Shown: piece after piece, positions 2,094 through 62,408 of the stretch
Numbering within the stretch: position 1 is the first letter of the stretch
How the letters are laid out: every line of letters begins with the position of its first letter
Assembly: GCA_964582475.1 (NCBI GenBank)
Contig: CAZOQS010000004.1
Span: 63,489-127,488, forward strand
Source: an uncultured Gammaproteobacteria bacterium
GTDB taxonomy: Bacteria; Patescibacteriota; Patescibacteriia; 2-12-FULL-60-25
Direction of reading: 5' to 3'
DNA: 64,000 nt
Made by a program: the position numbers and the translations under genes
The notes under the pieces: model-generated
What the model was told of the DNA's origin: nothing
Database searches by the model: none
What the model saw: only the letters and a program-made list of their open reading frames with translations

Positions 2094-2241
2094 TCTCCGT
2101 TAATTTACAATGCGAGATCGTACCAAAGTAGGCTAGAACACCGCCTTAATTCGTGGATAGAGCTTCAAGGAAGTGGCGCTTGAGGTCCTGTCCGCGATTC
2201 GCGGCTGGAGAGTCAATAGTGCATGAAGGAGGTCGACGACG

Positions 2242-3309
2242 ATGAGAAGCAAGAAGATTGGTTTGGGTCTCGGTGCGGTGCTGACGACGATCATGGGCTG
2301 TGCCCAGATCGAGATCGGTCCGCAGACGCGACTCCGGAGGGTCGAGGACACCGGCACGACGCTGCCGCCCTCGGCCAACAACACCTCGCCCCCCGTGGAC
2401 GAGCCCGACACCGGTACGCTCGTCTCCGACGACGTGCCCTACGTCGAACCGGCGGAGGACGGTGGCTCGATGGAGCTGCCGGTCGACGCGGGTGACCCCA
2501 TCGAGCCGGAGGACGTCCCGACCCCGGTCGAGCCCGACGCCGGTCCGATGCTCCCGCCCGGGGAGCTGACGGCTTCGCGCTTCGACCTCACCCTCAGCCC
2601 CGGACGCATCATCGGCGGGACGTACCAGGACCTCCTGGGGCTCGTCTTCCGTTCGACCGGTGCGCCGGTCGCGCTGAAGATGTTCCGTATCGGGTTCACG
2701 ATCGGCGGCGCCATGAACGGCGACCCGATTCCGAACTGGACGCTCAGCGACCTCGCCTTGCGCGGGACCGCGAACATCCCCGGGCTCCGGATGTCCATTC
2801 GCAGCGAGCGGATCCTGCCGAGCATGGGGTTCGAGGGTGGGTACACCAACACGGTGGTCACCTTCGTCTACGACCGCGAGCTCATCGTCACCCGGGACGG
2901 CGTGACGGCGACCTTCGGCGGCCGCTCCACGGGTGATCTCCGCCTCGGCGACCGCCTCTACACCAGCTTCGTCTTCGGTGAGGGGCGATACACCTACGCG
3001 GGTAGCTCGGAGGGCGCACTCCTCCCGGGCAACTACCTGTTCCCGAGCTACAGCGAGGTCACGGCGGACGGGCCCCACCTGTTCTACGGTACTGGCCGCT
3101 GCGACACCATCGTGCCGGCGGCCTACCACATGCCGGGCAACGCCACGCGCGGCATCATCCTGTGGTCGCCGCGCCTGCCGGGCCACAATGAGCTCGATTG
3201 CAGCAACGGCGGATCTGCCGACTGGCACAACGTGCTGGCTGCGCAGTACGACGGCCACGGCGGCGGCCCCATCAACTCGTACAGCACGGAGTACACCGCC
3301 GTCCCCTGA
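2242..3309 (+). CDS. High-GC hypothetical lipoprotein (compositionally foreign)
   Basis: ATG preceded by AAGGAGG (2226-2232). Signal peptide MRSKKIGLGLGAVLTTIMGC. GC3-rich codons (42/60 G+C in row 2401-2460). Acidic/Pro-rich linker followed by a globular domain. Confidence 0.65.
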   Translation: MRSKKIGLGLGAVLTTIMGCAQIEIGPQTRLRRVEDTGTTLPPSANNTSPPVDEPDTGTLVSDDVPYVEPAEDGGSMELPVDAGDPIEPEDVPTPVEPDAGPMLPPGELTASRFDLTLSPGRIIGGTYQDLLGLVFRSTGAPVALKMFRIGFTIGGAMNGDPIPNWTLSDLALRGTANIPGLRMSIRSERILPSMGFEGGYTNTVVTFVYDRELIVTRDGVTATFGGRSTGDLRLGDRLYTSFVFGEGRYTYAGSSEGALLPGNYLFPSYSEVTADGPHLFYGTGRCDTIVPAAYHMPGNATRGIILWSPRLPGHNELDCSNGGSADWHNVLAAQYDGHGGGPINSYSTEYTAVP

Positions 3310-3436
3310 ACCTTCCCACCCCGCTTGGTCCTGAGCTAACAGGACCGTCAGAGCAGCGCTCACCCGCTGCGGCTCCCCGGATGCCCTGACCATCCACTCC
3401 CTCCTTTGTCATTCTCTCTGAGGATGAAAGAGGTCG

Positions 3437-3472
3437 CACAAACACCGAGCTGAGCTCGGTGTTTGTGTTTTT
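3437..3472 (+). terminator. Rho-independent terminator
   Basis: Stem CACAAACACCGAGC / GCTCGGTGTTTGTG followed by TTTTT. Confidence 0.7.
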
Positions 3473-3839
3473 AGGAGAATGGGGTTTTAAGGAGCGCTCA
3501 AGAAACAACTCTCACCGCGCCCCGCGGACAGCAACACACTGCGTGCTGATCCCAGGGGTGCGTTGTTGTATTCAGGGGAATGTCTCACCAGTTTTTGAGG
3601 TTTTTATTGAGTACAATAGGCTATACTCCAGCATATGATTGATGGAAGAGCGCGTATAAGTAGCGAGGCGAACTCGTGGGCCGCTCCCTCTTGTAGGAGA
3701 AAGAGAGTAAAAGATATTGAGATAATATTTTAATACACATATTAGTTGTATTCTCTTTTCAGTACAAATAAAAACACCTCTCTTACGAGAAGTGTTTTTG
3801 TTTGTACCAATCTCAGCTTGTATATCGAGCTGAGCTCGA

Positions 3840-3914
3840 TGGAGCGGGTAGGGGGAGTCGAACCCCCATCTCGTCCTTGGCAAGGACGCATAATAGCCGC
3901 TATACGATACCCGC
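3840..3914 (-). tRNA. tRNA-Gly (anticodon GCC), CCA encoded
   Basis: The reverse complement reads GCGGGTATCGTATAGCGG...CGTCC-TTGCCAA-GGACG...GGGGGTTCGACTCCCCC-TACCCGC-T-CCA. It has a 7-bp acceptor stem, a T-loop GGTTCGA and discriminator U. Confidence 0.93.
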
Positions 3915-3973
3915 TTGGGCGCTATTTACGCGCCCAGGATAGTACCAGGGGTAAAGCCGGCTTGCAAGGCCGT

Positions 3974-6508
3974 TTAGGTGGTACTTGGAATAGGTTGTTT
4001 CGGAAGGAGCTGGGTGGCTTTTCGTTTTTCGAGCCAGCGACGGATGCCTTCGACGGCGCCAATGCTTCCGAGGGCAATGCCGATGGCGTTCCAGGGGAGG
4101 TTGGTGCTGCTTGGGCTGGTGGCGGCTGTCTTGGTGGTTGGCTCTGGATGACGAAGGATCACAATGTCAGCCGCTTTCGAGGGTTGGATTTTCCAGACGC
4201 CACTTCGCCCATCAAAGATGCCGCTGACTTCGATTGTATCGCCTGTTTTTACGCGTTGCGCGCGATAGCCAAGGATGGCTTTGATCGGGATCGTTACTTC
4301 TCCAATCTGTGCCTCAAGCGTGATGGCGGAAGCGCGACTGTCGGTAACGAGGCCTTCGAGTTTGGTGAAGCTCCATTGATCTTCGATGCCGGGAGCGGTC
4401 CATTCAACGAGGCGTGGACTTGAAGTTGTGGTGAGCGCTACCGATTTCCAGGTATCGCCTGCTTCCATCTGAAGTTGGACCCCTTCATCATTCGCAAACA
4501 GGAGTCCGGTGATTTCAATTGTTTCGCCGAGTTGAGGACTGGGTTGAGCGGTTGTGGCTTTGACAAGCAGGCCGCGTCCATCTGGGGCGAGGAGTACGAA
4601 GCGCTGCTTTCCAAAGACGCCAACCGTTGATCCGACCAAGCCTTGAAGCCGTACGCGAACACGTGGCGTGAGCTGTTCGGCAGGGATCTGTTCGAAGTGA
4701 GTCACAGAAGAGGGGAGAACAAGAGATTTCTTAGTGGATGTTGCGGGAGCTTTTTTAGCTGTGGGTTTGGCTGTGGCCCTTTTCTTCGCAGGCGTTTTCT
4801 TGGGGACTGCAGTCTTCTTTTCGGTGGTATTACTGGATGAATCGGTGGAGCTCTTCGCAGCCGTTCCGAGAGTCTTAACTTCGCCTGTACTCTTCGGTGC
4901 AGTAGACGGGGGTGCAGATTGCTTAGCTGAAGCGACAGACTTGGGTTGAGTACCCGTCTTCGCTGTGACGGTCTTTGGAACGGGGGTTGCTTTCACCGCT
5001 GGTGTGGCTACGGTAGCCGCTTCAAACACGTTTGGAGCGTTCTTAGTGGGACGACGAGTGAGCTTCCAGGTGGATGAGAGATCATCTCTCATCCAAGAAG
5101 TGCCTTTCAAGCTCGCTCCATAGCGTACTTCTTGCGCAATTGTTCCGTCGGCACGTCTTAATCGAACAAGCGCGCCAGCATTTTTCAGTTTCGCGGTTTT
5201 CCAAGCGGGAAGGAGATACGCTCCTTGAGGATTCAGGGCTTGGATCGTTGGAGCCGTCAACGAGAAGATGAGTTTTCCATCGGCTTCTAATTTCCAATCA
5301 ATATAGCGGAGGGGGCTCGCGTTCTCTGGGAGTCTGAGCTCGATCCACTCTTCTTCGCCGGGAGCAGGGGCAGCCATGATTTCCGTGATAACCAGATCGA
5401 AGGCGGCGGAATCGAGAGGAGTTAAAACAGGAGCAGAACTTGGTGGAGCACTGGGGGGTATTACAGCAGGAGAAGGTACGGCTACGGAGGAGATTGTAGA
5501 CGTAACGTGTTCAATGGTGCTGGTTACAGGGGGAGTTGAAGTTGGGGTGATGACGAGTGTGGAAGTCCCCGACTCGAACGGGAGGATCTCGTCCGTACTT
5601 GTGACAGAAATGATTTCGGGAAGCTCGGGAGTTTCTTGTATCTCTGGTAGAGCTGATGTGCTCGTTGGGAGAGGAGCGGGTTCATAGGGGGAAGGTGCGG
5701 GTAAGTCAGATTGTTCTTCGATCAGGTCGGCAGGAGTCACTCCGTAGAGCAACTCCTCCTCCGGGTCTAAGAGAGGTGGCTCGGGCGCAGGCACGGGCTC
5801 TTCGGTGGGAAGGGTGCGTACTTCTTCCACCTCTTCGGGCAAGGGAATAGATTCGGTGACGATAGGAGTGGTGCTGGTGGTTGCGGGAAGAGCGTTTTCA
5901 GCCCCTGGCTTTGGTATCGGCGTGCATTCATCACAGACGCCGGGAGTGCCAAGATCAGGAGCGCTCGGGTTGAAAACGCTTGTAGCCGACTTCCAAATCC
6001 ATCCAGTCGTTGAAGCGGTTCTGATCATGCTCGTATTGAGTGGAGTGGAAGCGCCAGCCGGAGGCTTTGTTCCCGTTCCCGCGCTATCTCTGAGCGCACC
6101 GGTTTGATCACGCAGCTCAATCAAGAGGCGATCATTTGTAAGCGATAAGGTGCTGGTTGAAAGAGCGATGGTTTGGGTTGTGAGCAGCGTCTTATCCGAT
6201 GTGTTCGTGTAGTTCGCGATGAGGAGCGTTTGTTGTGGAGCGATGCTGTCTGTCTGGGTGAAGAAGATAGGTGTATCGCTGACACCAGTGAGTGACCAGC
6301 CCGCAAGAGAGACGGGCTCGGTGCTAATGTTCCATAATTCGAGCCATTCATCTGCGGTCGAGCGGGAAGACCCAGACCACTGGATTTCACCGATGAGAAT
6401 CTGAGTGGATGGTTCAAAGGCCAAGGTGGCTTGAAGCGGAGTGAATAAGGTACACCAAACCAACAGAGACGAGAGCAGAGCTCGTCCCCTTGAGCTGGGG
6501 CGGGGCAT
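3974..6508 (-). CDS. Large secreted/anchored surface protein with two lamin-tail (LTD) domains and C-terminal OB-like domains
   Basis: N-terminal signal sequence. LTD-type motifs GEIQWSGS...DEWLELWN and ITEIMAAP...EEWIELRL. Long P/T/S/E linkers and a K/T/A-rich basic linker. C-terminal TM helix WNAIGIALGSIGAV followed by basic residues. Confidence 0.75.
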   Translation of the reverse strand: MPRPSSRGRALLSSLLVWCTLFTPLQATLAFEPSTQILIGEIQWSGSSRSTADEWLELWNISTEPVSLAGWSLTGVSDTPIFFTQTDSIAPQQTLLIANYTNTSDKTLLTTQTIALSTSTLSLTNDRLLIELRDQTGALRDSAGTGTKPPAGASTPLNTSMIRTASTTGWIWKSATSVFNPSAPDLGTPGVCDECTPIPKPGAENALPATTSTTPIVTESIPLPEEVEEVRTLPTEEPVPAPEPPLLDPEEELLYGVTPADLIEEQSDLPAPSPYEPAPLPTSTSALPEIQETPELPEIISVTSTDEILPFESGTSTLVITPTSTPPVTSTIEHVTSTISSVAVPSPAVIPPSAPPSSAPVLTPLDSAAFDLVITEIMAAPAPGEEEWIELRLPENASPLRYIDWKLEADGKLIFSLTAPTIQALNPQGAYLLPAWKTAKLKNAGALVRLRRADGTIAQEVRYGASLKGTSWMRDDLSSTWKLTRRPTKNAPNVFEAATVATPAVKATPVPKTVTAKTGTQPKSVASAKQSAPPSTAPKSTGEVKTLGTAAKSSTDSSSNTTEKKTAVPKKTPAKKRATAKPTAKKAPATSTKKSLVLPSSVTHFEQIPAEQLTPRVRVRLQGLVGSTVGVFGKQRFVLLAPDGRGLLVKATTAQPSPQLGETIEITGLLFANDEGVQLQMEAGDTWKSVALTTTSSPRLVEWTAPGIEDQWSFTKLEGLVTDSRASAITLEAQIGEVTIPIKAILGYRAQRVKTGDTIEVSGIFDGRSGVWKIQPSKAADIVILRHPEPTTKTAATSPSSTNLPWNAIGIALGSIGAVEGIRRWLEKRKATQLLPKQPIPSTT

Positions 6509-6868: not shown

Positions 6869-6902
6869 TTGACGGTGTTCTGTTTCTGTTCTACTTTTGT
6901 TC
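6869..6902 (+). promoter_or_regulatory. lexA promoter with candidate SOS operator (GTTC-N7-GTTC-N7-GTTC)
   Basis: TTGACG at 6869-6874. GTTC at 6877-6880, 6888-6891 and 6899-6902, each separated by exactly 7 nt. Weak -10 TACTTT at 6892-6897, 17 nt from the -35. Confidence 0.5.
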
Positions 6903-6905
6903 TAT

Positions 6906-7529
6906 ATGGCGCTCGCTCTTACCCCAAAACAGAAAGAGGTACTGGACTTCATTGTTCAGTACATCCACGACCGCGGCTTTGCCCCTTCCTATCGCGAAAT
7001 CGCGACTGGTCTGGAGTTGGCTTCGCCCTCGACGGTGCACGTGCATGTCCAAGCGCTTCGTCAGCGTGGGTATTTGCGTGATTCAGAGGGAGACTCGGGG
7101 AATCGTGAGCTTGAACCAACCGACCAAGCTGTTCGCTGGGGCCGAAGCGTTGTGCTGCCCCTGATTGGATTGATCACCGCTGGTCAGCCGATTGAAGCGA
7201 TCGAAGATCGTCGCGAGACACTAGCTGTTCCATCCGAGCTGGCCTCGGACCCATCTAATAGCTATATCCTGAGAGTAAAGGGCGAATCGATGATCGATGA
7301 GGGGATTCTTGATGGCGACTACGTCGTGATCGAACGGAACCCAGCTCCGCGTAATGGAGATGTGGTAGTTGCTCTTCTTGATAACGCCTACGCCACTCTT
7401 AAAAAGTTTTACCGTGAACGTGGACGCGTCCGACTGCAGCCTGCAAACAAAACAATGAAACCGATCTACTGTGATGATCCATTGATTCAAGGAGTAGTAA
7501 AAGGCGTGATTCGATCCTTTAGTCATTAA
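6906..7529 (+). CDS. lexA: LexA repressor (S24 peptidase)
   Basis: N-terminal winged HTH LTPKQKEVLDFIVQYIHDRGFAPSYREIA. Cleavage site ITAGQPI. Catalytic GESM and LKKF motifs. ATG at 6906 in a host-type context (ttctatATG). Confidence 0.92.
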   Translation: MALALTPKQKEVLDFIVQYIHDRGFAPSYREIATGLELASPSTVHVHVQALRQRGYLRDSEGDSGNRELEPTDQAVRWGRSVVLPLIGLITAGQPIEAIEDRRETLAVPSELASDPSNSYILRVKGESMIDEGILDGDYVVIERNPAPRNGDVVVALLDNAYATLKKFYRERGRVRLQPANKTMKPIYCDDPLIQGVVKGVIRSFSH

Positions 7530-7895: not shown

Positions 7896-7918
7896 AAAGC
7901 AAAACATTGTGCGAAAAG

Positions 7919-7992
7919 TCGGGGTGACAGGACTTGAACCTGCGGCCTCCTGCTCCCAAAGCAGGCGCTCTAGCCAACTGAGCTACGCCCCG
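7919..7992 (-). tRNA. tRNA-Pro (anticodon TGG), CCA not encoded
   Basis: The reverse complement reads CGGGGCGTAGCTCAGTTGGCTAGAGCG-CCTGC-TTTGGGA-GCAGG...GCAGGTTCAAGTCCTGT-CACCCCG-A. One C-A mismatch in the acceptor stem. Confidence 0.88.
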
Positions 7993-8137
7993 ACTCTTTT
8001 CACAATGTGCGGGGATAATAGCGGGAAATGAGAAACTTGCCAAGCTCCTTTTGAAACGGTCCCGTAAATGATACACTATGGGCGATTGACGGATTCGTTT
8101 AGCCCTTCAATCGATTGATGATCCTTTGGGACATTTC

Positions 8138-10981
8138 ATGCGTGATCCTGCCTCCAGAGCGGACCAAGAACCGGACGCGCTTTCTCAAGATGAACAGATC
8201 TTTTTAGATGGATTGCTCTCTCGAGTAGGTGGACCGGTTCCCGCACAGCCAGCGAAGCGTCGAACAAGAAGAAAACTTCGACGGAGTGCTTCGCGTACAC
8301 AAAGTTTGCAGGACGCAGAATCGATTGAGCAGCCAACAATTCACCTCCGTACTTCACATAAGGGTCCAGTTCGAATCCCTGTTCAGCATCGTCCCCACAC
8401 GCAGAGTCCTTTTTTGGTCACCGTCCAGGGATTGGTCCAGCCAATTTACGAAGAAGAGCGGTCTCCACGCGAGCATTCCATTCATGAGTGGGAATTACCC
8501 GCTGAGCTATCCGTTTCTTCCGAGGCGTTGCTTGCCGAAGCGTTGGATTTACACCTTCCTGATGTTGATCCGTTTATTTTTCATCAGCAATTCACCCCAG
8601 GTGATGCGGATGTTGCGTATGCGCAGACCTATGGATTTTGGACACGTGTTCGTAGGCCCTTTATTCGCTGGGAAGTCTCGCGTGCGGAAAAGCGAGCGAA
8701 TGTCCCGGTAAGACCTGTTCAGGCTGTACGCGTTACAAGTGAAGAGCATCTTCTTCCGTCGGACTTCGATTATCAGTGGACTACACAGACAGGAGCGAAG
8801 CGCACAGCCTTGCGGCACCAGCTAGCGCTTGTACGGCATCGCGTTTCTGCATTTTTCTTGCGCACAACTGAGACGATTGAAGATACAGTTACTGAATTTG
8901 AAGAGCGTGAGGAGGGAGTCATTACAGAGACTGAGCAAGCTTGGGGCGTACCTGTTTTGGTCCCACGGTTGGACTTCATAAAGATTTTTGGTGGGTTAGC
9001 AGCCTTACTCCTTGTTGCGAGTTTGCCTGCAGGGGCAGTTTCCTTGTCTCGCTCCTTCCGAGGGACAGTCGAACAGAGCTTGGGTCAGAGTCGATCGGCT
9101 GTGGAAGAGGTGACGCGCATGACCGACTCAGCGAATCCATTGTTGATGGCGCCATCGGCGTTGGCGGCTGCCTCTGAGCAGTTCCGTTTGGCTGAAGACG
9201 GGCTTCGCCAGGTGAATGGTCTTACGACCCTGATCGTGCGTTCGTTGCCACAGACTCGCGAAGCCTATCGAACGAGCGTCGCGCTGTTAGATGCGGGTAC
9301 GCAGGCAACGAAGGCGGGTCGACTCGTAACGGAGGGCGTACAAGAAGCGCTCACCATGCAGGTCCGTCATCCTATTGAACGCATTACAACGCTTCAAACA
9401 TTCGTGGATGCTGCGATTCCAACGCTTCGCAAAGCAAGTGATCGCATGGGGGATGTGAATGAGGAGCTCCTGCCTGAGGGGGAGCGAGAGAAGGTGGTTC
9501 AGGCGCGAACAGCGATTGAAGGTGGGTCACGTGCGCTGGAAGATATTTCCAAAACGCTTAGCTTTGCCCGTTTGCTGATGGGGGAGGCGCGTGAACAGAC
9601 CTATCTCCTCGTGTTCCAAAACCAGGCAGAGCTTCGTCCAACGGGTGGATTCATGGGATCGGTCGCCGAGGTTATGATCGATCGTGGAGATATTGATCAG
9701 GTGTTTATCCCAGGAGGTGGCCCTTATGATTTGCGTAGCCAGCTGAAGAGTCGTGTGCTCGCGCCAAAGCCTCTCCACCTTGTAAATCCACGTTGGGAGT
9801 TCCAAGACGCGAACTGGTTTCCAGACTTCGCCGCTTCGGCCGAAAAGATTAGCTGGTTCTGGAGTCAGGGCGGACAGTCCACGCTGGATGGGGTGATTGC
9901 GGTGAATGCCTCTGTCCTTGAGCCGCTCCTGCGCTTCACGGGCCCAATTGACCTGCCAGACTATGGAAAGAGCTTCACGGCGGATAACATCCAGTTAGAG
10001 CTGCAAAAAGCGGTGGAACTTGAATACGACAAGACAGAAAACAAGCCAAAGAAGATCATTGGAGATCTCTTCCCAGTGTTGCTTGAGCGTCTCCGGAACG
10101 CCCCACCGGAGGAAACATTGAAGCTCATTTCTATTTTGGACGAGTCGCTCCGAAAGAAGGATATCCAGTTGTGGTTCCGTGATCAGGAATTGCAAACATA
10201 CACCGAACGCTTTGGTTGGGCGGGTCGCATCAAGCCCACAAAGGGTGATGCGTTGAGTCTGATCGAGGCAAACATCGGTGGCCAGAAGACGGATGCGGTT
10301 ATTCGAGAAGCGATGGATCAACGCGTTCAGATCCTGCCAAATGGTCAGATTGAAACGATTGTTACGCTGGATCGCACGCATGACGGAAAACAGGGGCAGC
10401 TGTTCCGTGGAGCAAATAACGTCGAGTACGTTCGTTTGTATGTTCCTCTCGGTTCCGAACTCCTTTCAGTTGAAGGGGTCCAGCCTCCGACGACCACGGC
10501 TTACAAGTTGCCAATCGCCCAAGATCTTCCAGATCCTGATTTAGCGAGATACGTGAATTTGCCACGTGTCGGTCCAGCAGGGGTAGATATTACGCAGGAA
10601 TTCGGCCGTACGGCCTTTGGTGCGTGGGTGCAGCTCCGACCGGGGGCAAGTTCTCGAACCGTGTTCCGCTATCGATTGCCGTTTACGGTTCAGGAGCTGT
10701 CCGAGCGAGCCATGTCTGACTACGGAGGAGCGACTCCAGAACGTGGAGGCGCCTATACGCTCTATCTCACCAGCCAATCAGGGAAGACGGATCGAAGTTT
10801 AAATCTCCACGTACATTATCCAGAAGCGTGGAACGTTCGTTGGTCGAATCGTGAAGACCTTATCCAGAAGCCAGGCGTCTTGACCTGGTCCGGTCCGATG
10901 GCCGAAGATCAGATTTTTGCCTTGTCCTTTGCCCTCCCTTCGTCCTATGAACAAACCACCGTCCGACAAGAAGGAGAGTAG
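8138..10981 (+). CDS. DUF4012-family large membrane-anchored protein
   Basis: Contains the DUF4012-type signature FQNQAELRPTGGFMGSVAEV and one TM helix (IFGGLAALLLVASLPAGAV). First ATG at 8138; the ORF track starts at a TTG at 8126. Confidence 0.75.
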   Translation: MRDPASRADQEPDALSQDEQIFLDGLLSRVGGPVPAQPAKRRTRRKLRRSASRTQSLQDAESIEQPTIHLRTSHKGPVRIPVQHRPHTQSPFLVTVQGLVQPIYEEERSPREHSIHEWELPAELSVSSEALLAEALDLHLPDVDPFIFHQQFTPGDADVAYAQTYGFWTRVRRPFIRWEVSRAEKRANVPVRPVQAVRVTSEEHLLPSDFDYQWTTQTGAKRTALRHQLALVRHRVSAFFLRTTETIEDTVTEFEEREEGVITETEQAWGVPVLVPRLDFIKIFGGLAALLLVASLPAGAVSLSRSFRGTVEQSLGQSRSAVEEVTRMTDSANPLLMAPSALAAASEQFRLAEDGLRQVNGLTTLIVRSLPQTREAYRTSVALLDAGTQATKAGRLVTEGVQEALTMQVRHPIERITTLQTFVDAAIPTLRKASDRMGDVNEELLPEGEREKVVQARTAIEGGSRALEDISKTLSFARLLMGEAREQTYLLVFQNQAELRPTGGFMGSVAEVMIDRGDIDQVFIPGGGPYDLRSQLKSRVLAPKPLHLVNPRWEFQDANWFPDFAASAEKISWFWSQGGQSTLDGVIAVNASVLEPLLRFTGPIDLPDYGKSFTADNIQLELQKAVELEYDKTENKPKKIIGDLFPVLLERLRNAPPEETLKLISILDESLRKKDIQLWFRDQELQTYTERFGWAGRIKPTKGDALSLIEANIGGQKTDAVIREAMDQRVQILPNGQIETIVTLDRTHDGKQGQLFRGANNVEYVRLYVPLGSELLSVEGVQPPTTTAYKLPIAQDLPDPDLARYVNLPRVGPAGVDITQEFGRTAFGAWVQLRPGASSRTVFRYRLPFTVQELSERAMSDYGGATPERGGAYTLYLTSQSGKTDRSLNLHVHYPEAWNVRWSNREDLIQKPGVLTWSGPMAEDQIFALSFALPSSYEQTTVRQEGE

Positions 10982-12914
10982 GCCGGTTACACGTAAGAAG
11001 GCGGCCTCCAAACCGATGAAGGCGGAGCTGGTTGAGATTGAGGAGGGTGGGCGCGAGGGTGAGTCTGTCGAAGAGCGATTATCGAATATCTATCGTGATG
11101 ATCAAGGAGATCTTCCCGATTTTAATCAATTCGACCGAAAGCGAAGCTTTTGGTGGCTACGTACGACCGCGTGGATTGTAGTGGTGACATCGATTGTGAG
11201 TGTTTGTGCGTGGGCGGGCTTTATGGCTTGGCGTCCGTGGCGTACGGATGGACCACCCGCGATCGCTTTACGGATTGAAGCTCCCGGTGAAATCAGTCCC
11301 GGAAAAGAAGAAGAGATCCGTATCTATTGGGAGAATACGGACTTGCGTCCAGTACGCGAAACGGATCTACGGGTTTTTTTACCGACCGACTTTGTTTTGC
11401 AGAAAGCAACGCCTGTTCCGACCAGTGCTTCGTCCACCCTGTGGTCCTTGGGGCTTCTCCCTCCGCAACAAAAGGGGATGATTACGCTACGAGGAGTGTT
11501 CTATGGAGCTACCGATCGCCAAGCGACGATTCAGGCGCTGGCTACCTATCGCTATGATTCGCTTGATCGAGAGCGCCAACTGGCGGAGACGCTCCGCTTG
11601 GCCTACACGACTTCAACGGTTAACGGTGTTCTCACGGCTCCAGAGCGTATGTTGCCCGGCGACCAGGTGACGCTTCGCTATCAGGTGACAAATCGCTCGG
11701 ACCAGGTCCTTGGGCCGCTCGTTGCTCGTTTTGTTTTGCCAGATGGGTTCGTGGTCTCGGCTTCGTCTTCACCTGGCTTGAATCAAGAGGGGCAGACACT
11801 GACCTTCCCAATTACGCGTTTGCCACCGGGATCGGTGACAACGCTTCAAGTTGGTGGAACGATGCTCTCGGGTCATCCGGGGGATGCGCTTATCACAGCA
11901 GCGGTTGGCCGAGCGGATGTACGTGGCGCCTTTGTTTCCTTGGCAATGTCAGAGGTTCGTTCTGTGGTCTTGGCGGGGGATCTGGCTTTGCGGCTCATCG
12001 TGAATGGAAGTCCAACAGAGTCTCCGATTGATCCAGGGACGCCACTTCGTATCACGTTAGGCTACGAAAATACGAGCGGAGAAGAATTGAAGAACGTTTC
12101 TTTGACGCTTTCAACGGAATCATTGATAAACGCCAAGCGGCAGGCGGGGACAGTTGGGCTGATCCAATGGAGTGCGCTCGAAGATCTTCAGCGCGCCGCT
12201 TCGAGCACCAAAGGGCAGACGCAGACCTTGAAGCTCACCTCAGCTCAGGTCCCAAGTCTCGCTTCGCTCCCAGCGGGGGCAAAGGGCTCATTTGATTGGA
12301 TCATCCCTATCCGAAGCGCTCCAACGGGCACGAGAGACGCCGTCATTCAGATTGCGGCTCTCGCACATATCGACCGCGTTGGAGCGACCGTGGGAGCACG
12401 AGATGTTCGTGTGATGCCTTTCAATTTACGTTACAAGACGGATGCAGATCTACGCGTAGAAGCGCAGTACGCAACCGAAGAAGGGGCGCCGATCGGTTTT
12501 GGTCCATTGCCGCCAGAAGTAGGGAAGACCACCGGCTATCGAGTGAACTGGCGTATTACAAAGAAAGTGCACGAATTGGATCGAATGACCGTTAAAGCAA
12601 AGTTACCAGCGATCGCAACCTGGACGAAAAATATTCAAGTCGAACGTGGGACGGTGACCTACGATGAAGCGACGCGCGAAGTTCGTTGGACGATCCCGAG
12701 TCTTCCACTCGATGTCGCGAGCATAGCAGCTTCCTTTGATGTGCAGGTGACGCCAGCGCGTGCAGACGTAGGACGGTTCGCGCCACTCATCGGAGAAGCG
12801 ACGTTCGAGGCGCAGGATAAACAATTAAATACACCGCTTTTACGAGTAAAACCAGCCCTTACGACGGACCTTCCGGGTGATGAGCTCGCGCGTGGTCGTG
12901 GGGTCGTACGCTAA
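10947..12914 (+). CDS. Large membrane-anchored protein with repeated beta-rich (DUF11/CARDB-like) domains
   Basis: ATG in the host context cgtcctATG, overlapping the upstream gene by 35 nt. Basic N-terminus, TM helix AWIVVVTSIVSVCAWAGFMAW, then repeated roughly 100-aa segments. Confidence 0.6.
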   Translation: MNKPPSDKKESRPVTRKKAASKPMKAELVEIEEGGREGESVEERLSNIYRDDQGDLPDFNQFDRKRSFWWLRTTAWIVVVTSIVSVCAWAGFMAWRPWRTDGPPAIALRIEAPGEISPGKEEEIRIYWENTDLRPVRETDLRVFLPTDFVLQKATPVPTSASSTLWSLGLLPPQQKGMITLRGVFYGATDRQATIQALATYRYDSLDRERQLAETLRLAYTTSTVNGVLTAPERMLPGDQVTLRYQVTNRSDQVLGPLVARFVLPDGFVVSASSSPGLNQEGQTLTFPITRLPPGSVTTLQVGGTMLSGHPGDALITAAVGRADVRGAFVSLAMSEVRSVVLAGDLALRLIVNGSPTESPIDPGTPLRITLGYENTSGEELKNVSLTLSTESLINAKRQAGTVGLIQWSALEDLQRAASSTKGQTQTLKLTSAQVPSLASLPAGAKGSFDWIIPIRSAPTGTRDAVIQIAALAHIDRVGATVGARDVRVMPFNLRYKTDADLRVEAQYATEEGAPIGFGPLPPEVGKTTGYRVNWRITKKVHELDRMTVKAKLPAIATWTKNIQVERGTVTYDEATREVRWTIPSLPLDVASIAASFDVQVTPARADVGRFAPLIGEATFEAQDKQLNTPLLRVKPALTTDLPGDELARGRGVVR

Positions 12915-12952
12915 TCAACACTGTGGATATCGAATCTGTGCTATGATTACCG

Positions 12953-14287
12953 ATGTTCTTTCCCTTTTGTATGCCTATCCGCGGATCCCGTCGTCCTAAC
13001 GTAGTCCCTATCACTGCTCCTTCGTTTTCCACCCCTCCCCGTTCCTACCTCTATCGTAAAATCGCATTTGGATTTATTGGACTGACTGTCTTGCTCGTTG
13101 CGGCGATTCTCTGGTTGTCTTCGGTGAAGGCGCAGGTCATTGTCCACGTAAAGAAAGAGCCAGTAGCGGTTGATACAGTGGTGGAATTGGCGAAGGTTCC
13201 AAAAACAGGACAGCTCCTTGGCCGTGTGGCTCAAGGAACATTTGAGAATCGCAAAGAATTTCCTATTCGTACAGCGGGTGACAGTGCAGTTACAACCACG
13301 CCCGTTGCTTTGATCCCTTCATCGACGACCGTTGCGGCTGCGCCTACCGCAACCACACCCGTGATTGCGCCAAACGCGCTTGCACGTGGCACCGTGAAAA
13401 TTGTAAACACCTATTCACGCGCACAACCACTTGTACGTACAACGCGGTTGTTGACGGCTGATAACAAATTATTCCGCATCGATAAAGCGGTGAATGTTCC
13501 AGCAGGTGGTTCGGTAGAAGTAGAGGTGTATGCTGATAAACCGGGTCCAGGATTCGAAATTGGTCCAACGAAATTCACCATTCCAGGCTTGTTCGTCGAT
13601 CTTCAGAAATTTATTTACGCAGAATCAACGACTGCCTTCAAACTCGAAACAGTTCCAGTCCCTGCGCCAACTCCTGCTCCGCGTACGCAGCCAACCCCAG
13701 CTCCACGGACGACGCCTCGTGCCGGCGCCCTCACTCCAACGCAAGAAGAGCTTGATGCAGCTGAACGCCAGGCGATCGATGAGACACTCGAGCGTGCAAA
13801 ACGTCAGTTAGCTTCGGAGGTGACTGAATCAGCTTCGTTGGAAGGAGTCTATTTCACCAAAGTCCGTAAAGAAATCCTTCCTGGATCAACCCCACAATCG
13901 TTTATTGTCTATATCCAGGCAGACGTAACAGCCGTTTACTACCCAAAGGATGACATGCTGGTCTTGGTCCGCAGCAAGCTGCGCGAAAAAGTACCTTCCG
14001 ATCGTGAGATTGTCCCATTCGATGGAAAATCGATCCGTTATCAGATCGAGTCGGTTGATCCACGCTCCGAAACGGCCACGGTCCGCGTCCAGACAGACGC
14101 GACCTCTCGCCTAACGCCCTCAAGTGATGGATTGAAGAAAGAAAATATGGTCGGCAAGTCAAAGCAAGAATTGGTCGATACGCTGAAGAAGATCGATGGA
14201 GTCGAATCGGTTGACGTCATCACCTCACCAGGTTGGTTACGCAAAATTCCAAGCATGCAAGAACGGATTGAGTTGAAGGTGGAATAA
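12953..14287 (+). CDS. Membrane-anchored hypothetical protein with a Pro/Thr linker
   Basis: TM helix IAFGFIGLTVLLVAAILWLSSV and linker PVPAPTPAPRTQPTPAPRTTP. Same strand and tightly spaced with the two upstream genes. Confidence 0.6.
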   Translation: MFFPFCMPIRGSRRPNVVPITAPSFSTPPRSYLYRKIAFGFIGLTVLLVAAILWLSSVKAQVIVHVKKEPVAVDTVVELAKVPKTGQLLGRVAQGTFENRKEFPIRTAGDSAVTTTPVALIPSSTTVAAAPTATTPVIAPNALARGTVKIVNTYSRAQPLVRTTRLLTADNKLFRIDKAVNVPAGGSVEVEVYADKPGPGFEIGPTKFTIPGLFVDLQKFIYAESTTAFKLETVPVPAPTPAPRTQPTPAPRTTPRAGALTPTQEELDAAERQAIDETLERAKRQLASEVTESASLEGVYFTKVRKEILPGSTPQSFIVYIQADVTAVYYPKDDMLVLVRSKLREKVPSDREIVPFDGKSIRYQIESVDPRSETATVRVQTDATSRLTPSSDGLKKENMVGKSKQELVDTLKKIDGVESVDVITSPGWLRKIPSMQERIELKVE

Positions 14288-14298
14288 CAACGCCAAAG

Positions 14299-14328
14299 AA
14301 AACCCCACGCAAATACGCGTGGGGTTTT
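14299..14328. terminator. Bidirectional intrinsic terminator
   Basis: A-tract, stem CCCCACGC / GCGTGGGG, T-tract. Lies between convergent genes. Confidence 0.7.
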
Positions 14329-14340
14329 CTGTTTAACGCA

Positions 14341-15009: not shown

Positions 15010-15091
15010 AGTTCATGAAGATAGGTGGAATATGGACGCATCGTACGAGACCTTTGGTCAGGGTCAAAGAAAAACAGCAGATAGCACAAAA

Positions 15092-15120
15092 ATGACAGAT
15101 ATGTCATAAATATGACATAT
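15092..15120. promoter_or_regulatory. Candidate operator: alternating ATGACA / TGTCAT half-sites
   Basis: ATGACA (15092-15097), 4 nt, TGTCAT (15102-15107), 4 nt, ATGACAT (15112-15118). This gives two overlapping perfect inverted repeats that abut the ATG at 15119. Confidence 0.45.
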
Positions 15121-15823: not shown

Positions 15824-15836
15824 GTGGCCGTTTTTG
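15807..15836. terminator. Bidirectional intrinsic terminator
   Basis: AAAA-ACGGCCAC-gctaa-GTGGCCGT-TTTT. Overlaps the stop codon of the + strand gene and lies downstream of rplA. Confidence 0.75.
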
Positions 15837-15851
15837 TTATATTTTTTTGGA

Positions 15852-16559: not shown

Positions 16560-16621
16560 AGACTGAATGTGGTGCAAACCTCCGTTTGAGCGGAGTCCCA
16601 CGAACAAGAGTAAGTGGCCTG

Positions 16622-16650
16622 ATAATAGCCATTTAAGCCAAAAATGTCAA
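16622..16650 (-). promoter_or_regulatory. Stand-alone sigma70-like promoter for rplA
   Basis: On the minus strand: TTGACA (16650-16645), 17-nt spacer, TATTAT (16627-16622). It is followed by a roughly 60-nt leader containing GGGACUCCG-cucaaa-CGGAGG. Confidence 0.6.
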
Positions 16651-16747
16651 AGGTTGCTCGGTTCTCTAAGCTCTGGCTTAATATGGGCGACTCGAATAGG
16701 AATGTTCGAGAAACGAGGACAAGTTCGCTCGAGAGGAGACGAGGACG

Positions 16748-17777: not shown

Positions 17778-17791
17778 GTTCGTTGTGATTC

Positions 17792-41366: not shown

Positions 41367-41369
41367 TCT

Positions 41370-55558: not shown

Positions 55559-56121
55559 CTATTTTTGCTCGTCAGGGATGAACGCGAGCGCGTCACCGTT
55601 CATACAATAGCGGAGACTTGTGGGTTCTGGCCCGTCAGAAAAGACATGGCCGAGATGGTCTCCGCATTTCGAGCGAATCTCTGTTCGTTCCATAAATAGA
55701 CCTTCGTCCTTTTGTTCGATGACCGCGTCGGGTTTGATCGGAGCCTAAAAACTGGGCCAGCCCGTGCAAGAATCGTATTTCTGTTCAGAGCGGAAGACAG
55801 GCCCGCACAATCTGCGGTTACGTAGGTACCAGGCCGTTTTTCATCCAAGAGCAGGCTGGTGAAGGGTGTTTCCGTCCCGGCTTCACGCAGGATGTGGCAC
55901 TGCTCAGGCGATAAAATACTCTTCCAGTATTCCTCGGTGCGAGTAGCTTTCACAGGGTGATTCACCCGCTGTCTGGAGATTCGTACCCCAAATCCACCCA
56001 CCATAAGAAGAGTGGCGAGTGCCGTGATACCCGTGTATCGGGTGTGGGTTTCGTTGGGATTGGCAGCGTAGAGTGAAAATGATTTTAGGTTGTGGCAGGA
56101 GTTTCTTCTACGGTGGTACAC
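55559..56121 (-). pseudogene. msrB: Membrane-anchored methionine-R-sulfoxide reductase MsrB, disrupted (1-nt frameshift + in-frame TAG)
   Basis: The upstream frame gives ...EEYWKSILSPEQCHILREAGTETPFT...PGTYVTADCAG. From about 55803 the MsrB sequence continues in another frame as PVFRSEQKYDSCTGWPSF-TAG(55745-55747)[57 protein letters not shown], ending at 55559. Confidence 0.75.
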
Positions 56122-56816
56122 ACCTGTATCAGGGTTTCAACGAGGTCAAAGAGCAAGTCAGCTGCTTCACGATCTTTTAATGTAACCAGCTTGCATTGTT
56201 TGCGTGTTTCTTCGTACTGAGGCGCGGATAAAAAAGAAAGAAACTTGCGTAGATACTCAGGTGAACGAATGTACATGTTACAGAGCTCAACCGTATCTTC
56301 TATGACCTGCATATCCACTCCTTGAGCTGCGTAGACTCGAAGAGATCCAAGGGTAGAAAAACCCTTCCCTGTACTTATTCTTGCTGCCTTTATTTTTTGA
56401 ACAAGCAGGCTATGAAGTTCTTTGGCATCAGGAATTTTCTGTGCTAAGTCCTCAACAAGGTGATGCGTTAGTTCATGAGAGAAACGATACGCGACTTCAG
56501 CTTCAGGAGTGAAACTTGCTTCATCAAATAAGATAAGACTTCGTTCTTGAGGTGATAATAGCTTGAGTCCAACCTGCAATATTCTGAAACGATCAGTTTC
56601 AATGGTCGTACCACTATGCCAATTATTTGGATCCACCTGGACTCGGTCTGGGAAGCATCCATTACGATCGAGAGCTAGAGTGACAGCTTCTCCATGTTGC
56701 GTTTGAGTTCCTAACAAATCAAAAAGCTGACCTGCCGCCTCCTCTGGTCTTTGTCGAGCGGTTTCAATCAACTTCGTATGCCAACTTTTCGGACCAGCCA
56801 TCTCGTAATGATTCAT
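56085..56816 (-). CDS. Hypothetical protein with an HExxH motif (possible metallopeptidase)
   Basis: 243-aa ORF with FSHELTHHLVED. Confidence 0.5.
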   Translation of the reverse strand: MNHYEMAGPKSWHTKLIETARQRPEEAAGQLFDLLGTQTQHGEAVTLALDRNGCFPDRVQVDPNNWHSGTTIETDRFRILQVGLKLLSPQERSLILFDEASFTPEAEVAYRFSHELTHHLVEDLAQKIPDAKELHSLLVQKIKAARISTGKGFSTLGSLRVYAAQGVDMQVIEDTVELCNMYIRSPEYLRKFLSFLSAPQYEETRKQCKLVTLKDREAADLLFDLVETLIQVCTTVEETPATT

Positions 56817-60499: not shown

Positions 60500-60540
60500 G
60501 AAGGAAGCGCACACATCTGCTAGTATCTAGCGGATCTCCT

Positions 60541-61482
60541 ATGAACCATTTTTCTCCGTCAACCTTAGTTTTGGATGAGATGGCTGATTTAGCGCTCTAT
60601 CAGAACTTTCGTAAAAATCTGCAGCAACCAGAATTGATTCGCTTGTTTGATACCTTAATTATCGAGGAGAAAAAGCATGTTGCGTTTTGGCAGAAGAAAA
60701 CGGAAGTAGTTCCAGAATCACTCGGTATCGTGCGGACACTCAAGGTGGGAGCATTGACGCAATTTGGTCGTCTATTCGGGATCCCAGGAATCTTATTGGT
60801 GTTAGAGGCGATTGAAGTCCATGGAATCCGAAAATATTTAGACCTCTGGAGCTCAACTTCTGAAGTCTCGCTAAAAGCAGACGTAATGTCGATTCTGAAG
60901 GATGAACTGCAGCACGAAGATCACATGATTACGAATGTTGCAGGACGAAGCGTTCGACCAGAAGTGATCCGCAACGCCTTTCTGGGTTTTAACGATGGCT
61001 CGGTTGAAATCTTGGGGGCAGTAAGTGGGTTCTCCGCCGCCTTCGGAAATGTCTGGCATGTCTTGATCGCTGGCTCGACCGTCGCAGTTGCGGGAGCGCT
61101 TTCCATGGCGGTTGGGGCTTTCATGGCCACAAGCGCAGAACACGAAGTCGCAGCGCTCGATAAACTTCGTCGTCAGGCCCTCAGCATCGAGGGTGAGAAA
61201 CGAGAATCGGATGCACTTGCGTCGCCACTGAAGGCTGCACTGCTTGTAGGAATTACCTATCTCGTCGGAGCATTTGTACCAATCTTGCCATTTCTATTCG
61301 GTGCACAAAATGCCATTCCATCTATTTTGGTATCGGGTGTGTTGATTCTGCTCGTCTCTGCAACGCTCGCTTTCCTCTCTGGAATGCGCATTCGTCGTCG
61401 GTTACTGATGAATGGGGGATTGATTGCGTTCGCGGTCATCGTTTCAACGTTGTTTGGAATGCTGCTAGAACGGTGGAGCTGA
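60541..61482 (+). CDS. VIT1/CCC1-family iron/manganese transporter with an N-terminal ferritin-like domain
   Basis: The N-terminal EEKKHVAFW...ELQHEDH pattern suggests a di-iron site. FLGFNDGSVEILGAVSG and C-terminal TM helices are typical of VIT1. Confidence 0.8.
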   Translation: MNHFSPSTLVLDEMADLALYQNFRKNLQQPELIRLFDTLIIEEKKHVAFWQKKTEVVPESLGIVRTLKVGALTQFGRLFGIPGILLVLEAIEVHGIRKYLDLWSSTSEVSLKADVMSILKDELQHEDHMITNVAGRSVRPEVIRNAFLGFNDGSVEILGAVSGFSAAFGNVWHVLIAGSTVAVAGALSMAVGAFMATSAEHEVAALDKLRRQALSIEGEKRESDALASPLKAALLVGITYLVGAFVPILPFLFGAQNAIPSILVSGVLILLVSATLAFLSGMRIRRRLLMNGGLIAFAVIVSTLFGMLLERWS

Positions 61483-61502
61483 TTTTTTTGCACCGAAACG
61501 CA

Positions 61503-61556
61503 TACACCCGTCGAACCCAAGGGCGCGGATGTCTGCGCGGGGGTCCGACGGGTGTG
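61503..61556. terminator. GC-rich compound hairpin between convergent genes
   Basis: ACACCCGTCG ... CGACGGGTGT outer stem enclosing GCGCGG/CGCGGG pairing. Confidence 0.5.
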
Positions 61557-61564
61557 ATTGAGGA

Positions 61565-62302
61565 CTATTCGTCCAGGAGGCCCAGGTACTTGGCGAGGCG
61601 CCAGAGACCGTAGCCTTCCAGAACGAACGGGAAGAGGATGAGGAGTCCTCCGATGTAGGGGCCCACCTGCTTGAACAGGTAGACGAGCGCGAGTGCGTCA
61701 CTGATGATTGCGGCCATGAAGAGAAAACCCATGCCGACGAATTTCCCAGTGTACCTCCACGCATCGCGCTTCTGTTCGTCGGTCACCGCGTTGAGGAGTC
61801 GAGTCCCCGGCCCACCGTGCGCCTTGAGAATGACCACCATCGGTTCGACCGTCTCATGCCGAGGAGGCGCTCGCTTCACGCCCTGGGTCGGCGCAGTCGG
61901 AGATGTCAGGACGAACGGCGCCTCCTGCGGGGGCATGGGGATGGCGGCCGGGGTTGCGACGGGCGGCAGGCCACCGATCGTCCGCTTGCGCGAGGTCGCG
62001 TTCGTACGACGAAAGAGTTCTTTTGCGACAGACGCTGCCGCGAAGAACACCAGCCTCGTTCGAGGATCACCCGTGGCGGGCATCTCAGTTGCCAGCTCGT
62101 GGAGCAGGTCGCTCTCGAACGCGCGCATGATGCCCTGGAGGTCCTCATCGCTCTTCTCGGCGAGGAGCAGCTCGATCGTCTCGTGATGTCTCTGCCAGAG
62201 TCCCTGGAGAGAGCTGCTTTCGATCCGATCCAGGCCGCCTACACGGTCCACGATCAGATCAGTAGTGTCAGTTACGATTCGAATGTACCGGGCGTCGTCC
62301 AT
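61565..62302 (-). CDS. High-GC hypothetical protein with a C-terminal double-TM anchor (compositionally foreign)
   Basis: ATG preceded by AAGGAGGG (GGAGG = 62315-62311) with an 8-nt spacer. 47/60 G+C in row 61921-61980. C-terminal TM helices FVGMGFLFMAAIISDALALVYLF and IGGLLILFPFVLEGYGLW. Confidence 0.6.
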   Translation of the reverse strand: MDDARYIRIVTDTTDLIVDRVGGLDRIESSSLQGLWQRHHETIELLLAEKSDEDLQGIMRAFESDLLHELATEMPATGDPRTRLVFFAAASVAKELFRRTNATSRKRTIGGLPPVATPAAIPMPPQEAPFVLTSPTAPTQGVKRAPPRHETVEPMVVILKAHGGPGTRLLNAVTDEQKRDAWRYTGKFVGMGFLFMAAIISDALALVYLFKQVGPYIGGLLILFPFVLEGYGLWRLAKYLGLLDE

Positions 62303-62408
62303 GGGAAAACCCTCCTTGTGGGTACCTGTGTCTTAGGCGAGACGTACGTTAAACCAGGAAAAATAAGCCGTCAATGTAATAAAATACAGTTTCAATCAGG
62401 GGAAGGAG

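Follow-up and report, generated by a model that had tools for sequence, protein, structure and literature searches.

Five GC-rich genes in a Candidatus Uhrbacteria contig probably have mixed and mostly old origins

The window analyzed here is a 64-kb stretch (64,000 nucleotides) of contig CAZOQS010000004.1, from a genome that we assign on its genes to Candidatus Uhrbacteria, within the Candidate Phyla Radiation (CPR, Patescibacteria); all coordinates are those of the window unless a relative is named. It contains five genes that stand out as islands of high GC content: a lipoprotein gene (2242–3309, plus strand), the phosphatidate cytidylyltransferase gene cdsA (16748–17635, plus), an M23 peptidase gene (21788–22348, plus), a SixA-like gene (23483–23947, plus) and a membrane protein gene (61565–62302, minus). 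An initial annotation had proposed that they came from one shared donor, possibly a GC-rich physical host of the bacterium. Our analysis leads to a different view: we think it likely that the five genes belong to a flexible, fast-evolving Uhrbacteria gene set and would have arrived by different routes and at different, mostly old times. Compositional islands of this kind are tempting as clues to the hosts of CPR bacteria, and the host inference fails here when it is checked: the origins of the islands appear to be mixed, largely within CPR and old, and their codon usage carries no donor information.

That the five genes are genuine compositional outliers, as had been claimed, is confirmed. The window has an overall GC of 0.523, and the GC and GC3 (GC at third codon positions) of the genes are 0.68 and 0.90 for the lipoprotein, 0.66 and 0.87 for cdsA, 0.60 and 0.73 for M23, 0.61 and 0.74 for the SixA-like gene, and 0.62 and 0.76 for the membrane protein, that is, GC 0.60–0.68 and GC3 0.73–0.90 on a background GC of 0.52. 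The remaining approximately 70 open reading frames (ORFs) have GC3 of about 0.35–0.68, mostly about 0.45–0.65. A 400-nt sliding GC profile has sharp peaks at all five positions, and the relative synonymous codon usage (RSCU) of the five genes correlates with that of the core at 0.21–0.46, compared with 0.58 ± 0.21 among core genes. A Shine-Dalgarno motif upstream and a GC-rich hairpin downstream could be read directly in the sequence for all five genes; the initial annotation had claimed the former for all five and the latter for several. The protein labels fared unevenly: Pfam supports those of cdsA and M23, the SixA-like match is below threshold, and neither the lipoprotein nor the membrane protein matches a family.

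Five such islands in 64 kb had been thought an unusually high density. We counted as GC-rich any stretch of 400 bp or more in which GC lies 0.10 or more above the background, and surveyed 34 moderate-GC loci, mostly from Uhrbacteria species representatives and with the window itself counted among them. On this definition the density is about 0.5 per 10 kb in the surveyed loci and 0.78 per 10 kb in the window, the latter including an artefact in the S5 gene, and the window is unremarkable for its clade. The artefact is a sixth GC peak in rpsE (41276–41850, plus), which we rejected as an island because GC is high at the first and second codon positions and GC3 is only 0.46. The peak reflects an Ala/Gly/Arg-rich low-complexity N-terminal extension of approximately 110 residues (41370–41700), the S5 domains occupying residues 115–253. 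We also rejected the idea that high GC is a genome-wide mutational equilibrium from which the core is held lower by selection, since in the intergenic DNA that flanks the islands GC is at the host level or below it.

Relatives were gathered by a NusG scan of GTDB species representatives, which returned 80 loci (referred to by L numbers, as are other contigs used for comparison). Every scanned locus that bears a usable lineage name is Candidatus Uhrbacteria or Patescibacteria; the closest loci, at 93–95% NusG identity, carry placeholder titles ('uncultured Gammaproteobacteria') from co-assembly projects. At 42180–42190 in the window the S5 gene is followed directly by that for L15, with no L30 gene between them, and absence of L30 is typical of CPR. 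The suggested CPR membership is upheld on both grounds. We note that many public metagenome-assembled genomes that are clearly Patescibacteria (L038–L043 and others) are titled 'uncultured Gammaproteobacteria bacterium', a placeholder that is a trap for title-based taxonomy.

The islands are also physically part of this chromosome. The exact CdsA protein occurs on 17 contigs; the 10 that were listed come from 10 different samples, and in all 10 the genes for L1 and/or L11 lie beside cdsA wherever the contig extends past the gene. The lipoprotein (as the exact protein), M23, SixA-like and membrane protein genes are found with the same neighbors on 8, 4, 13 and 7 contigs respectively, and in strain-level contigs the nucleotide identity across the junctions is 99.5–100%. 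The source samples include activated sludge, and one is from a pilot plant for nutrient removal from wastewater. The junctions recur unchanged across many assemblies made independently of one another. This excludes chimeric assembly or binning, which had been offered as the trivial explanation, and the five islands are genuine chromosomal genes.

The cdsA gene encodes 295 residues, of which 8–281 match Pfam CTP_transf_1 (PF01148) with an E-value of 2.4e-50 (172.3 bits, against a cut-off of 24 bits). Its translation carries the phosphatidate cytidylyltransferase signature, the PROSITE pattern S-x-[LIVMF]-K-R-x4-K-D-x-[GSA]-x2-[LIF]-[PGS]-x-H-G-G-[LIVMF]-x-D-R-[LIVMFT]-D. The score against the NCBIfam equivalog for the E. 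coli-type CdsA is 113.5 bits, below its cut-off of 385 bits. On these matches the protein is a divergent member of the family.

The gene lies in a cassette of 1,077 bp (16658–17734, plus), whose boundaries are given by a precise empty site in L024, where the flanks are 90–94% identical to the window. The cassette sits in the gap that separates the rplK terminator from the rplA promoter, on the strand opposite to both genes. The left anchor of the slot is rplA (L1; 15852–16607, minus; Pfam Ribosomal_L1, 7e-58) with its promoter at 16622–16650 (minus; TTGACA-17-TATTAT). The right anchor is rplK (L11; 17792–18214, minus; Pfam Ribosomal_L11 and L11_N) with its terminator hairpin at 17743–17777 (minus), the two together spanning 17743–18214. 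At its 3′ end the cassette has its own GC-rich hairpin (17671–17725, plus), read directly as CCGGCCCTCGG...CGAGGGCCG. No target-site duplication and no associated recombinase were found at the insertion, and no consensus promoter was detected for the cassette.

Diverged cdsA alleles (43–50% identical) occupy the same site in other Uhrbacteria, and the acquisition is therefore old. The species representative L038 has at this site an allele that is 43–45% identical, with GC3 0.77, in a cassette whose ends are homologous to those of the window, including the 3′ hairpin. A third allele lies beside rplK in L122 (48–49% identical, GC3 0.80, with a similar 3′ hairpin). In L039 only a remnant of the hairpin is left, and L040 has a degenerate hairpin together with a different ORF of GC3 0.88, which by inspection resembles a gene of GC3 0.92 that precedes cdsA in L122. 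No other cdsA was found within 10 kb of nusG in the remaining 79 loci of the NusG scan. Between the window and L038, the excess identity of cdsA at 4-fold degenerate sites is 0.21, inside the range of 0.14–0.54 for host genes, while the proteins are only 45% identical; most host proteins are at 84–95% and SecE is at 65%. We therefore consider that cdsA has diverged along with the genomes that carry it, and that its protein has evolved fast.

Outside the lineage, the closest CdsA proteins are 47–48% identical over 97% of the length, and those that are named belong to Myxococcaceae, Myxococcales, Deltaproteobacteria and Polyangiaceae. These Myxococcota-type matches lie on contigs of up to 598 kb, one of them on a contig of GC 0.715 with the canonical uppS-cdsA synteny. 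None of the best 120 matches carries a Patescibacteria name. In a neighbor-joining tree, the proteins of the window and L038 fall in one small clade with P0009, which is the L122 allele. Horizontal acquisition of cdsA, from a high-GC ancestry outside CPR, is thus supported by sequence comparison. By our own rough estimate, neutral amelioration from a GC3 of about 0.94 across this divergence predicts about 0.7–0.8, close to the values of 0.77–0.87 observed for cdsA. In the literature, we found nothing relevant on CdsA in CPR or on a link between Uhrbacteria and Myxococcota.

The rplK-rplA spacer as a whole (16608–17791 in the window; L038–L117) is hypervariable: in the scanned loci, which are mostly Uhrbacteria species representatives, its length runs from about 30 bp to 8.2 kb, and it holds many unrelated gene families, often of small membrane proteins. 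One recurrent occupant is the GC-rich gene mentioned above (GC3 0.88–0.92), found at 679–1209 in L122 (176 aa) and at 5913–6467 in L040 (184 aa), its relatedness being judged by inspection. Adjoining the cdsA slot, at 14336–15803, are two genes of host composition, one encoding an AlaX-like editing domain and the other a hypothetical protein of 234 residues; the pair is missing from L024, has no match in L038–L040 and is present in L041 and L042.

The lipoprotein has a different history. It is a 355-residue protein with a signal sequence and lipobox cysteine (MRSKKIGLGLGAVLTTIMGC; lipobox ..IMGC), an acidic Pro-rich linker and a β-rich domain from about residue 105 to 355; C20 is nearly invariant across the family alignment. 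It has no match in Pfam or NCBIfam. The AlphaFold2 model (mean predicted local distance difference test score 72.9) has a confident β-rich domain, for which no PDB fold match was found at E ≤ 1e-3. A word-indexed search of 5.8 billion proteins returned only the protein itself and one relative at 78% identity, and an exhaustive HMMER search of 1.84 billion representatives found 11 family members. The closest named homologue is from Patescibacteria; one distant partial match at 27% is labeled Verrucomicrobiae.

The unit is framed by conserved elements. A sigma-70-like promoter (2065–2093, plus; TTGACA-17-TATAGT, 11/12 matches) lies in DNA of host composition and is followed by a 5′ leader hairpin motif (2165–2201, plus; TCAAGGAAGTGGCGCTTGAGGTCCTGTCCGCGATTCG), which is 92% identical in L118 and present in L119. 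Downstream of the gene is a GC-rich 3′ untranslated region (UTR; 3310–3467, plus) ending in a terminator hairpin (3437–3467), and beyond it a tRNA-Gly(gcc) gene (3840–3914, minus), whose 3′ end faces the unit. In L118, which shares its source sample with the window, the leader and the 3′ UTR have nucleotide identities of 92% and 83% (the latter over 119 nt), while the lipoprotein allele, of GC3 0.89, is 44% identical over the matched core and 40% when the full alignment is counted. L119 is another Patescibacteria genome, of background GC 0.50, in which the locus is syntenic, the upstream neighbor gene is 72% identical, and the TTGACA promoter and leader hairpin are shared; its lipoprotein homologue is 41% identical and is a lone island there too (GC 0.68, GC3 0.90). 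Overall, the coding alleles are 40–52% identical and their 4-fold sites are saturated (identity 0.40–0.46, against 0.37–0.41 expected), with GC3 of 0.89–0.90 in three lineages. On this evidence the lipoprotein appears to be a long-resident, hypervariable surface family known almost only from CPR, and not a recent capture.

The leader hairpin occurs in three lineages (window 2165–2201; L118 32–68; L119 approximately 9865–9900) and consists of the stem TTCAAG/CTTGAA and the loop GAAKTGGCG, followed by TCCTGTCYGYGAT. It has no match in Rfam, and may be a regulatory RNA element. A further lipoprotein homologue, in the CPR-like contig L120, belongs to a 5-kb run of six genes (10001–15246) whose GC3 is about 0.76, compared with about 0.55 around them, which shows that there are also GC-rich blocks of several genes. 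Around the lipoprotein region the window encodes an 844-residue lamin-tail-domain protein (3974–6508), a LexA-like repressor (6897–7529) and a 951-residue DUF4012 protein (8126–10981), which may constitute a surface or competence-related neighborhood.

The islands had been regarded as five equivalent single-gene insertions, which does not hold for M23, as this gene is cargo inside an integrative element of about 3.9 kb. The element begins at a tRNA-Pro(ggg) gene (19315–19391, plus), whose 3′ end, ACCCCGACCA (19382–19391), forms an attL-like core. The same 10 bp recur as an attR-like repeat, ACCCCGACCA, at 23329–23338, which suggests that the element spans 19392–23338 and that the SixA-like gene lies just outside it. 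Beside the tRNA is the gene for a large serine recombinase of 572 residues (19370–21088, minus), with the Pfam domains Resolvase, Recombinase and Zn_ribbon_recom all above their cut-offs and a match to the phrog_95 integrase (2e-67). The other element genes are an M15 peptidase gene (21111–21761), which is the partner of M23, and an ORF of 134 codons (22557–22961, minus). L001, L002 and L006 are 97–99% identical to the window up to 19389, at the end of the tRNA-Pro(ggg) gene, and have no element; L006 diverges at this point and its contig ends before identity could resume, while in L001 and L002 identity resumes at 24057, window 19390–24056 being replaced by about 600 bp with a different GC-rich gene of 126 codons. 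From its domains and its pattern of presence and absence, we predict the element to be a tRNA-Pro-integrated large-serine-recombinase element.

The M23 protein has 186 residues and is the downstream member of the M15-M23 gene pair. It matches Pfam Peptidase_M23 (PF01551; 8e-19, 68 bits against a cut-off of 28.7 bits); it has the metal-binding HxH motif ('PHIHF') and an atypical form ('HAVD') of the N-terminal HxxxD motif. The identity of its homologues falls in steps, at 97, 84, 76, 57 and 48%, and all that are named come from Patescibacteria, Uhrbacteria or Minisyncoccia. The same gene pair is found in L127, also from Uhrbacteria, with a host-like GC3 of 0.32–0.37 (0.37 for M23). An origin from phage was considered and rejected: a scan of IMG/VR found no relative of the serine recombinase, cdsA or the lipoprotein, and the matches in PHROGs are confined to the integrase and generic M23 lysin domains. 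In L053, a distant Uhrbacterium (77% NusG identity), a 28-residue fragment (43–126) with 89% identity to the serine recombinase is found close to SecE at the contig end, a hint that the element can move between species.

Between the attR-like site and hupA (24152–24430), which bounds the variable slot on the right, lies the SixA-like gene. Its product has 154 residues and an RHG motif ('VRHGS'), and scores 19.5 bits against His_Phos_1, below the cut-off of 21.7 bits and over the N-terminal 67 residues only; there is no NCBIfam match and no PDB sequence match. The label of SixA-like histidine phosphatase is thus tentative. In L038 the slot between tRNA-Pro and hupA holds a SixA-like homologue (34–36% identical) together with a homologue of the 126-residue protein of L001 and L002. 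The latter is acidic and is encoded with its own promoter at GC3 0.72–0.79 (L001 8806–9186; L002 6885–7259; L038 8162–8566). Between L001 and L038 its gene has a 4-fold identity of 0.74, a lower divergence than the host genes show when the window is compared with L038, and this indicates a recent exchange of cassettes within the genus. The window has a second tRNA-Pro gene, tgg (7918–7992, minus), which is 91% identical to the ggg gene (19315–19391, plus) and inverted relative to it, 11 kb away.

The membrane protein is a 245-residue orphan in whose C-terminal part two hydrophobic segments look like transmembrane spans, and has no Pfam or NCBIfam match; the hairpin downstream of its gene was read at 61504–61556. 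Across seven contigs, the gene adjoins that for VIT1 wherever the contig reaches that far, and its other neighbor is AAA_33 in all but L032. In L125, a JGI contig that is syntenic and 82–90% identical to the window, the homologue stands at the same position with 76% identity and GC3 0.78. The nucleotide identity of the gene between the two is 0.81, with most aligned neighbors at 0.81–0.91. It has thus diverged in step with its neighbors and has been inherited along with them. An empty site was not found, the gene being present in every relative sampled. The window also has an AT-rich gene (56085–56816; GC 0.44, GC3 0.35) that is essentially missing from L125; low GC is the more usual compositional direction for horizontally transferred accessory genes. 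An Rfam scan of the window found three tRNAs and nothing else.

Taken together, these histories do not fit one shared donor: the best-hit taxa differ, with Myxococcota-type matches for cdsA and CPR matches for M23 and the lipoprotein, and GC3 falls into two tiers, at about 0.9 (lipoprotein, cdsA) and about 0.75 (M23, SixA-like, membrane protein). Clustering by codon usage, which had been suggested as a check, cannot tell a Myxococcota-like donor from a high-GC Uhrbacteria donor here. All five genes have generic high-GC usage. Their pairwise RSCU correlations are 0.55–0.82, and their codon usage correlates equally with the Myxococcota-like contig and with high-GC Uhrbacteria. The dinucleotide signature separates islands from core (delta* of 0.147, with a null maximum of 0.072) and places the islands at delta* 0.078 from the Myxococcota-like contig for whole sequences, and 0.063 for coding sequence only. 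We rejected this signature as evidence on the donor, as core proteins recoded with the codon usage of the islands reproduce it (0.047) and codon usage alone explains it. Since the signature is reproduced by recoding and the codon usage is generic, composition says nothing about the donor. What the initial annotation would have taken as a refutation, unrelated donors and a lineage-wide distribution, is largely borne out; the exception is the composition, which has not ameliorated.

We therefore return to the flexible Uhrbacteria gene set and to the routes it would imply. On this account cdsA would be of Myxococcota-like ancestry and would have entered before the lineages of the window and L038 split; that L122 too has an allele in this position suggests an entry before the split of that lineage as well. 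Very fast protein evolution would have followed, with the gene lost or swapped out in several relatives. The lipoprotein would represent a rare, almost Patescibacteria-only family whose locus is conserved, whose promoter and leader are native and whose alleles are deeply divergent. M23 would be cargo of the serine-recombinase element of about 3.9 kb at the 3′ end of tRNA-Pro, the SixA-like gene an occupant of the variable slot between tRNA-Pro and hupA, and the membrane protein gene a lineage-specific gene inherited with its neighbors. The element would move by serine-integrase site-specific recombination, and the other genes, among related Uhrbacteria, by uptake of DNA and double crossover within the ultra-conserved sequences on either side (genes for ribosomal proteins and tRNAs, and hupA). 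Strain comparisons are consistent with such exchange: across window 15804–31950, identity to L023, L024, L025 and L001 is a mosaic of tracts at 100% and tracts at 81–93%, with the SixA-like gene, hupA, LOG and L28 at 100%, M15 at 99%, the serine recombinase at 81%, and SecE and UbiA at 85–86%. This pattern indicates frequent homologous recombination in the population. The high GC would derive from donors of higher GC, with amelioration incomplete, and not from one recent host.

Several points weigh against this account. No higher-GC CPR donor was found for any of the five genes. The Myxococcota affinity of cdsA draws on best hits and a neighbor-joining tree, for which compositional attraction is possible, and the bootstrap value that groups the Uhrbacteria CdsA alleles is modest (85/200). 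The att sites and exact ends of the element are placed from a repeat of 10 bp only, and recombination in conserved flanks is read from mosaic patterns of identity. Finally, the GC3 of the lipoprotein persists at about 0.9 although its synonymous sites are saturated; simple amelioration should have erased it, and an account in terms of donor relics is therefore incomplete for this gene.

This last point lends some weight to an alternative that we nevertheless regard as unlikely, in which high GC is maintained gene by gene at an equilibrium set by GC-biased gene conversion, at loci where deeply divergent alleles often recombine, or by selection on GC-rich mRNA or codons. Besides the lipoprotein, whose alleles are saturated at 4-fold sites yet have GC3 of 0.89–0.90 in three lineages, it could account for the recurrence of GC-rich genes in the same variable slots (the 126-residue, 176/184-residue and SixA-like proteins) and for the way in which conserved flanks of normal GC abut hyper-divergent GC-rich coding regions, and recombination mosaicism is evident. 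However, the GC3 of cdsA, at 0.77–0.87, is close to what we estimate for partial neutral amelioration from about 0.94, the M23 homologue of L127 is not GC-rich, so that this family is not intrinsically so, and recurrent import from unsampled GC-rich CPR fits the same facts. Work by Lassalle and colleagues from 2015 is said to put the known effects of biased gene conversion in bacteria as small. A similarly doubtful form of the idea is that the islands, most clearly the lipoprotein, mark hotspots of recombination or diversifying selection and not foreign DNA, and are held GC-rich by a gene-local process, with GC-biased gene conversion where divergent alleles recombine via conserved flanks as the leading candidate. 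In a weaker variant, the cdsA of Myxococcota type may be the record of an old physical association between Uhrbacteria and Myxococcota.

Somewhat less probable still is an origin of all five genes from higher-GC Patescibacteria only, in which case compositional attraction would have given cdsA a spurious affinity to Myxococcota. Uhrbacteria loci do span a GC of 0.39–0.64, the relatives of M23 and the lipoprotein are almost exclusively from CPR, and Patescibacteria are themselves the source of 83% of the transfers inferred into the phylum (PMC12455944). Against it stands cdsA: its matches of 47–48% over 97% of the length are Myxococcota-type, the best 120 hold no Patescibacteria-named protein, and no high-GC Uhrbacteria locus carries the gene. 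In addition, the GC3 of the lipoprotein and cdsA (0.87–0.90) exceeds the value of about 0.74 in the highest-GC Uhrbacteria loci sampled.

Recent and independent capture of the five genes from one GC-rich physical host, such as an actinobacterium, which would reveal that host, now seems very improbable. The shared generic high-GC codon usage (RSCU correlations of 0.55–0.82) and the high-GC non-CPR relatives of cdsA are compatible with it, as is the fact that the window and some of the Myxococcota-type matches come from samples of wastewater or activated-sludge type, the habitat of the MBK-series accessions. But no near-identical donor gene exists among 5.8 billion proteins, which include those from the same samples and runs: outside the lineage no match exceeds 48% for cdsA or 78% for the lipoprotein. 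No match points to actinobacteria, the relatives of the lipoprotein and M23 are almost only from CPR, and the dinucleotide signature holds no information on the donor. The genes stand at orthologous positions in diverged relatives, which speaks against recent capture, and their two GC3 tiers speak against one source. Lastly, wrong joining of GC-rich pieces from another high-GC organism to CPR contigs can be dismissed: several short-read assemblies do break near the lipoprotein gene, with contigs ending at 3376–3466, but such breaks fall at strain-variable sites, the island flanks are host-like and continuous, independent assemblies from many SRA, ENA, JGI and NCBI data sets arrive at identical junctions, and relatives at 81–93% identity share the arrangement.

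The window thus offers a nucleotide-resolved example of a flexible gene pool, with single-gene cassettes in the rplK-rplA, tRNA-Pro to hupA and tRNA-Gly slots together with a serine-integrase element. The xenologous cdsA is relevant to the membrane biology of CPR, being a gene of phospholipid synthesis in a lineage that is generally believed to obtain its lipids from other organisms. That the lipoprotein family has not ameliorated is the one real oddity, and is a testable anomaly.

Comparison with known systems helps to place these units. Integron cassettes likewise consist of one ORF with an imperfect inverted repeat behind it; we rejected this model, as the five units share no end motif, repeat, inverted repeat or attC and their hairpins have no sequence in common, there is no IntI or attI (the only recombinase being the serine integrase), and the units are dispersed. 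The cdsA cassette resembles phage morons and chromosomal islets in being a single gene of deviant GC with its own Shine-Dalgarno motif and terminator-like hairpin, inserted between adjacent genes on the opposite strand; unlike a moron, it lies in a cellular chromosome and no consensus promoter was detected. The M23 element is like tRNA-targeting serine-recombinase elements and cryptic prophages in having a recombinase beside a tRNA 3′ end, a repeat of the tRNA at the far end, presence and absence among strains, and lysin-like cargo (the M15 and M23 peptidases). It differs from them in its size of about 3.9 kb, in having no structural phage genes and no IMG/VR relative, in its predicted att sites, and in a cargo that is a mosaic of GC, the integrase and M15 being host-like and M23 GC-rich.

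The lipoprotein locus invites comparison with hypervariable surface loci, such as the capsule and antigen loci of naturally competent bacteria, where recombination takes place in conserved flanks. It has the same conserved promoter, leader and 3′ UTR around alleles of 40–52% identity, with synonymous saturation, and differs in that all of its alleles are extremely GC-rich relative to the genome.

The closest parallel is with the genomic islands already known in Patescibacteria, where 83% of inferred transfers are intra-Patescibacteria and mostly not recent (PMC12455944, mSystems 2025). Those islands too are compositionally atypical accessory genes in streamlined CPR genomes, commonly with envelope or membrane functions, and are exchanged mostly within the phylum with occasional donors from other phyla. 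The genes described here differ in being GC-richer than the genome and mostly monocistronic, in occupying slots bounded by ultra-conserved genes, with cdsA splitting the rplK-rplA pair, and in that the empty, filled and swapped states of the slots are resolved at the nucleotide level. The window is thus a well-resolved new example of the horizontally transferred islands described in this phylum (PMC12455944).

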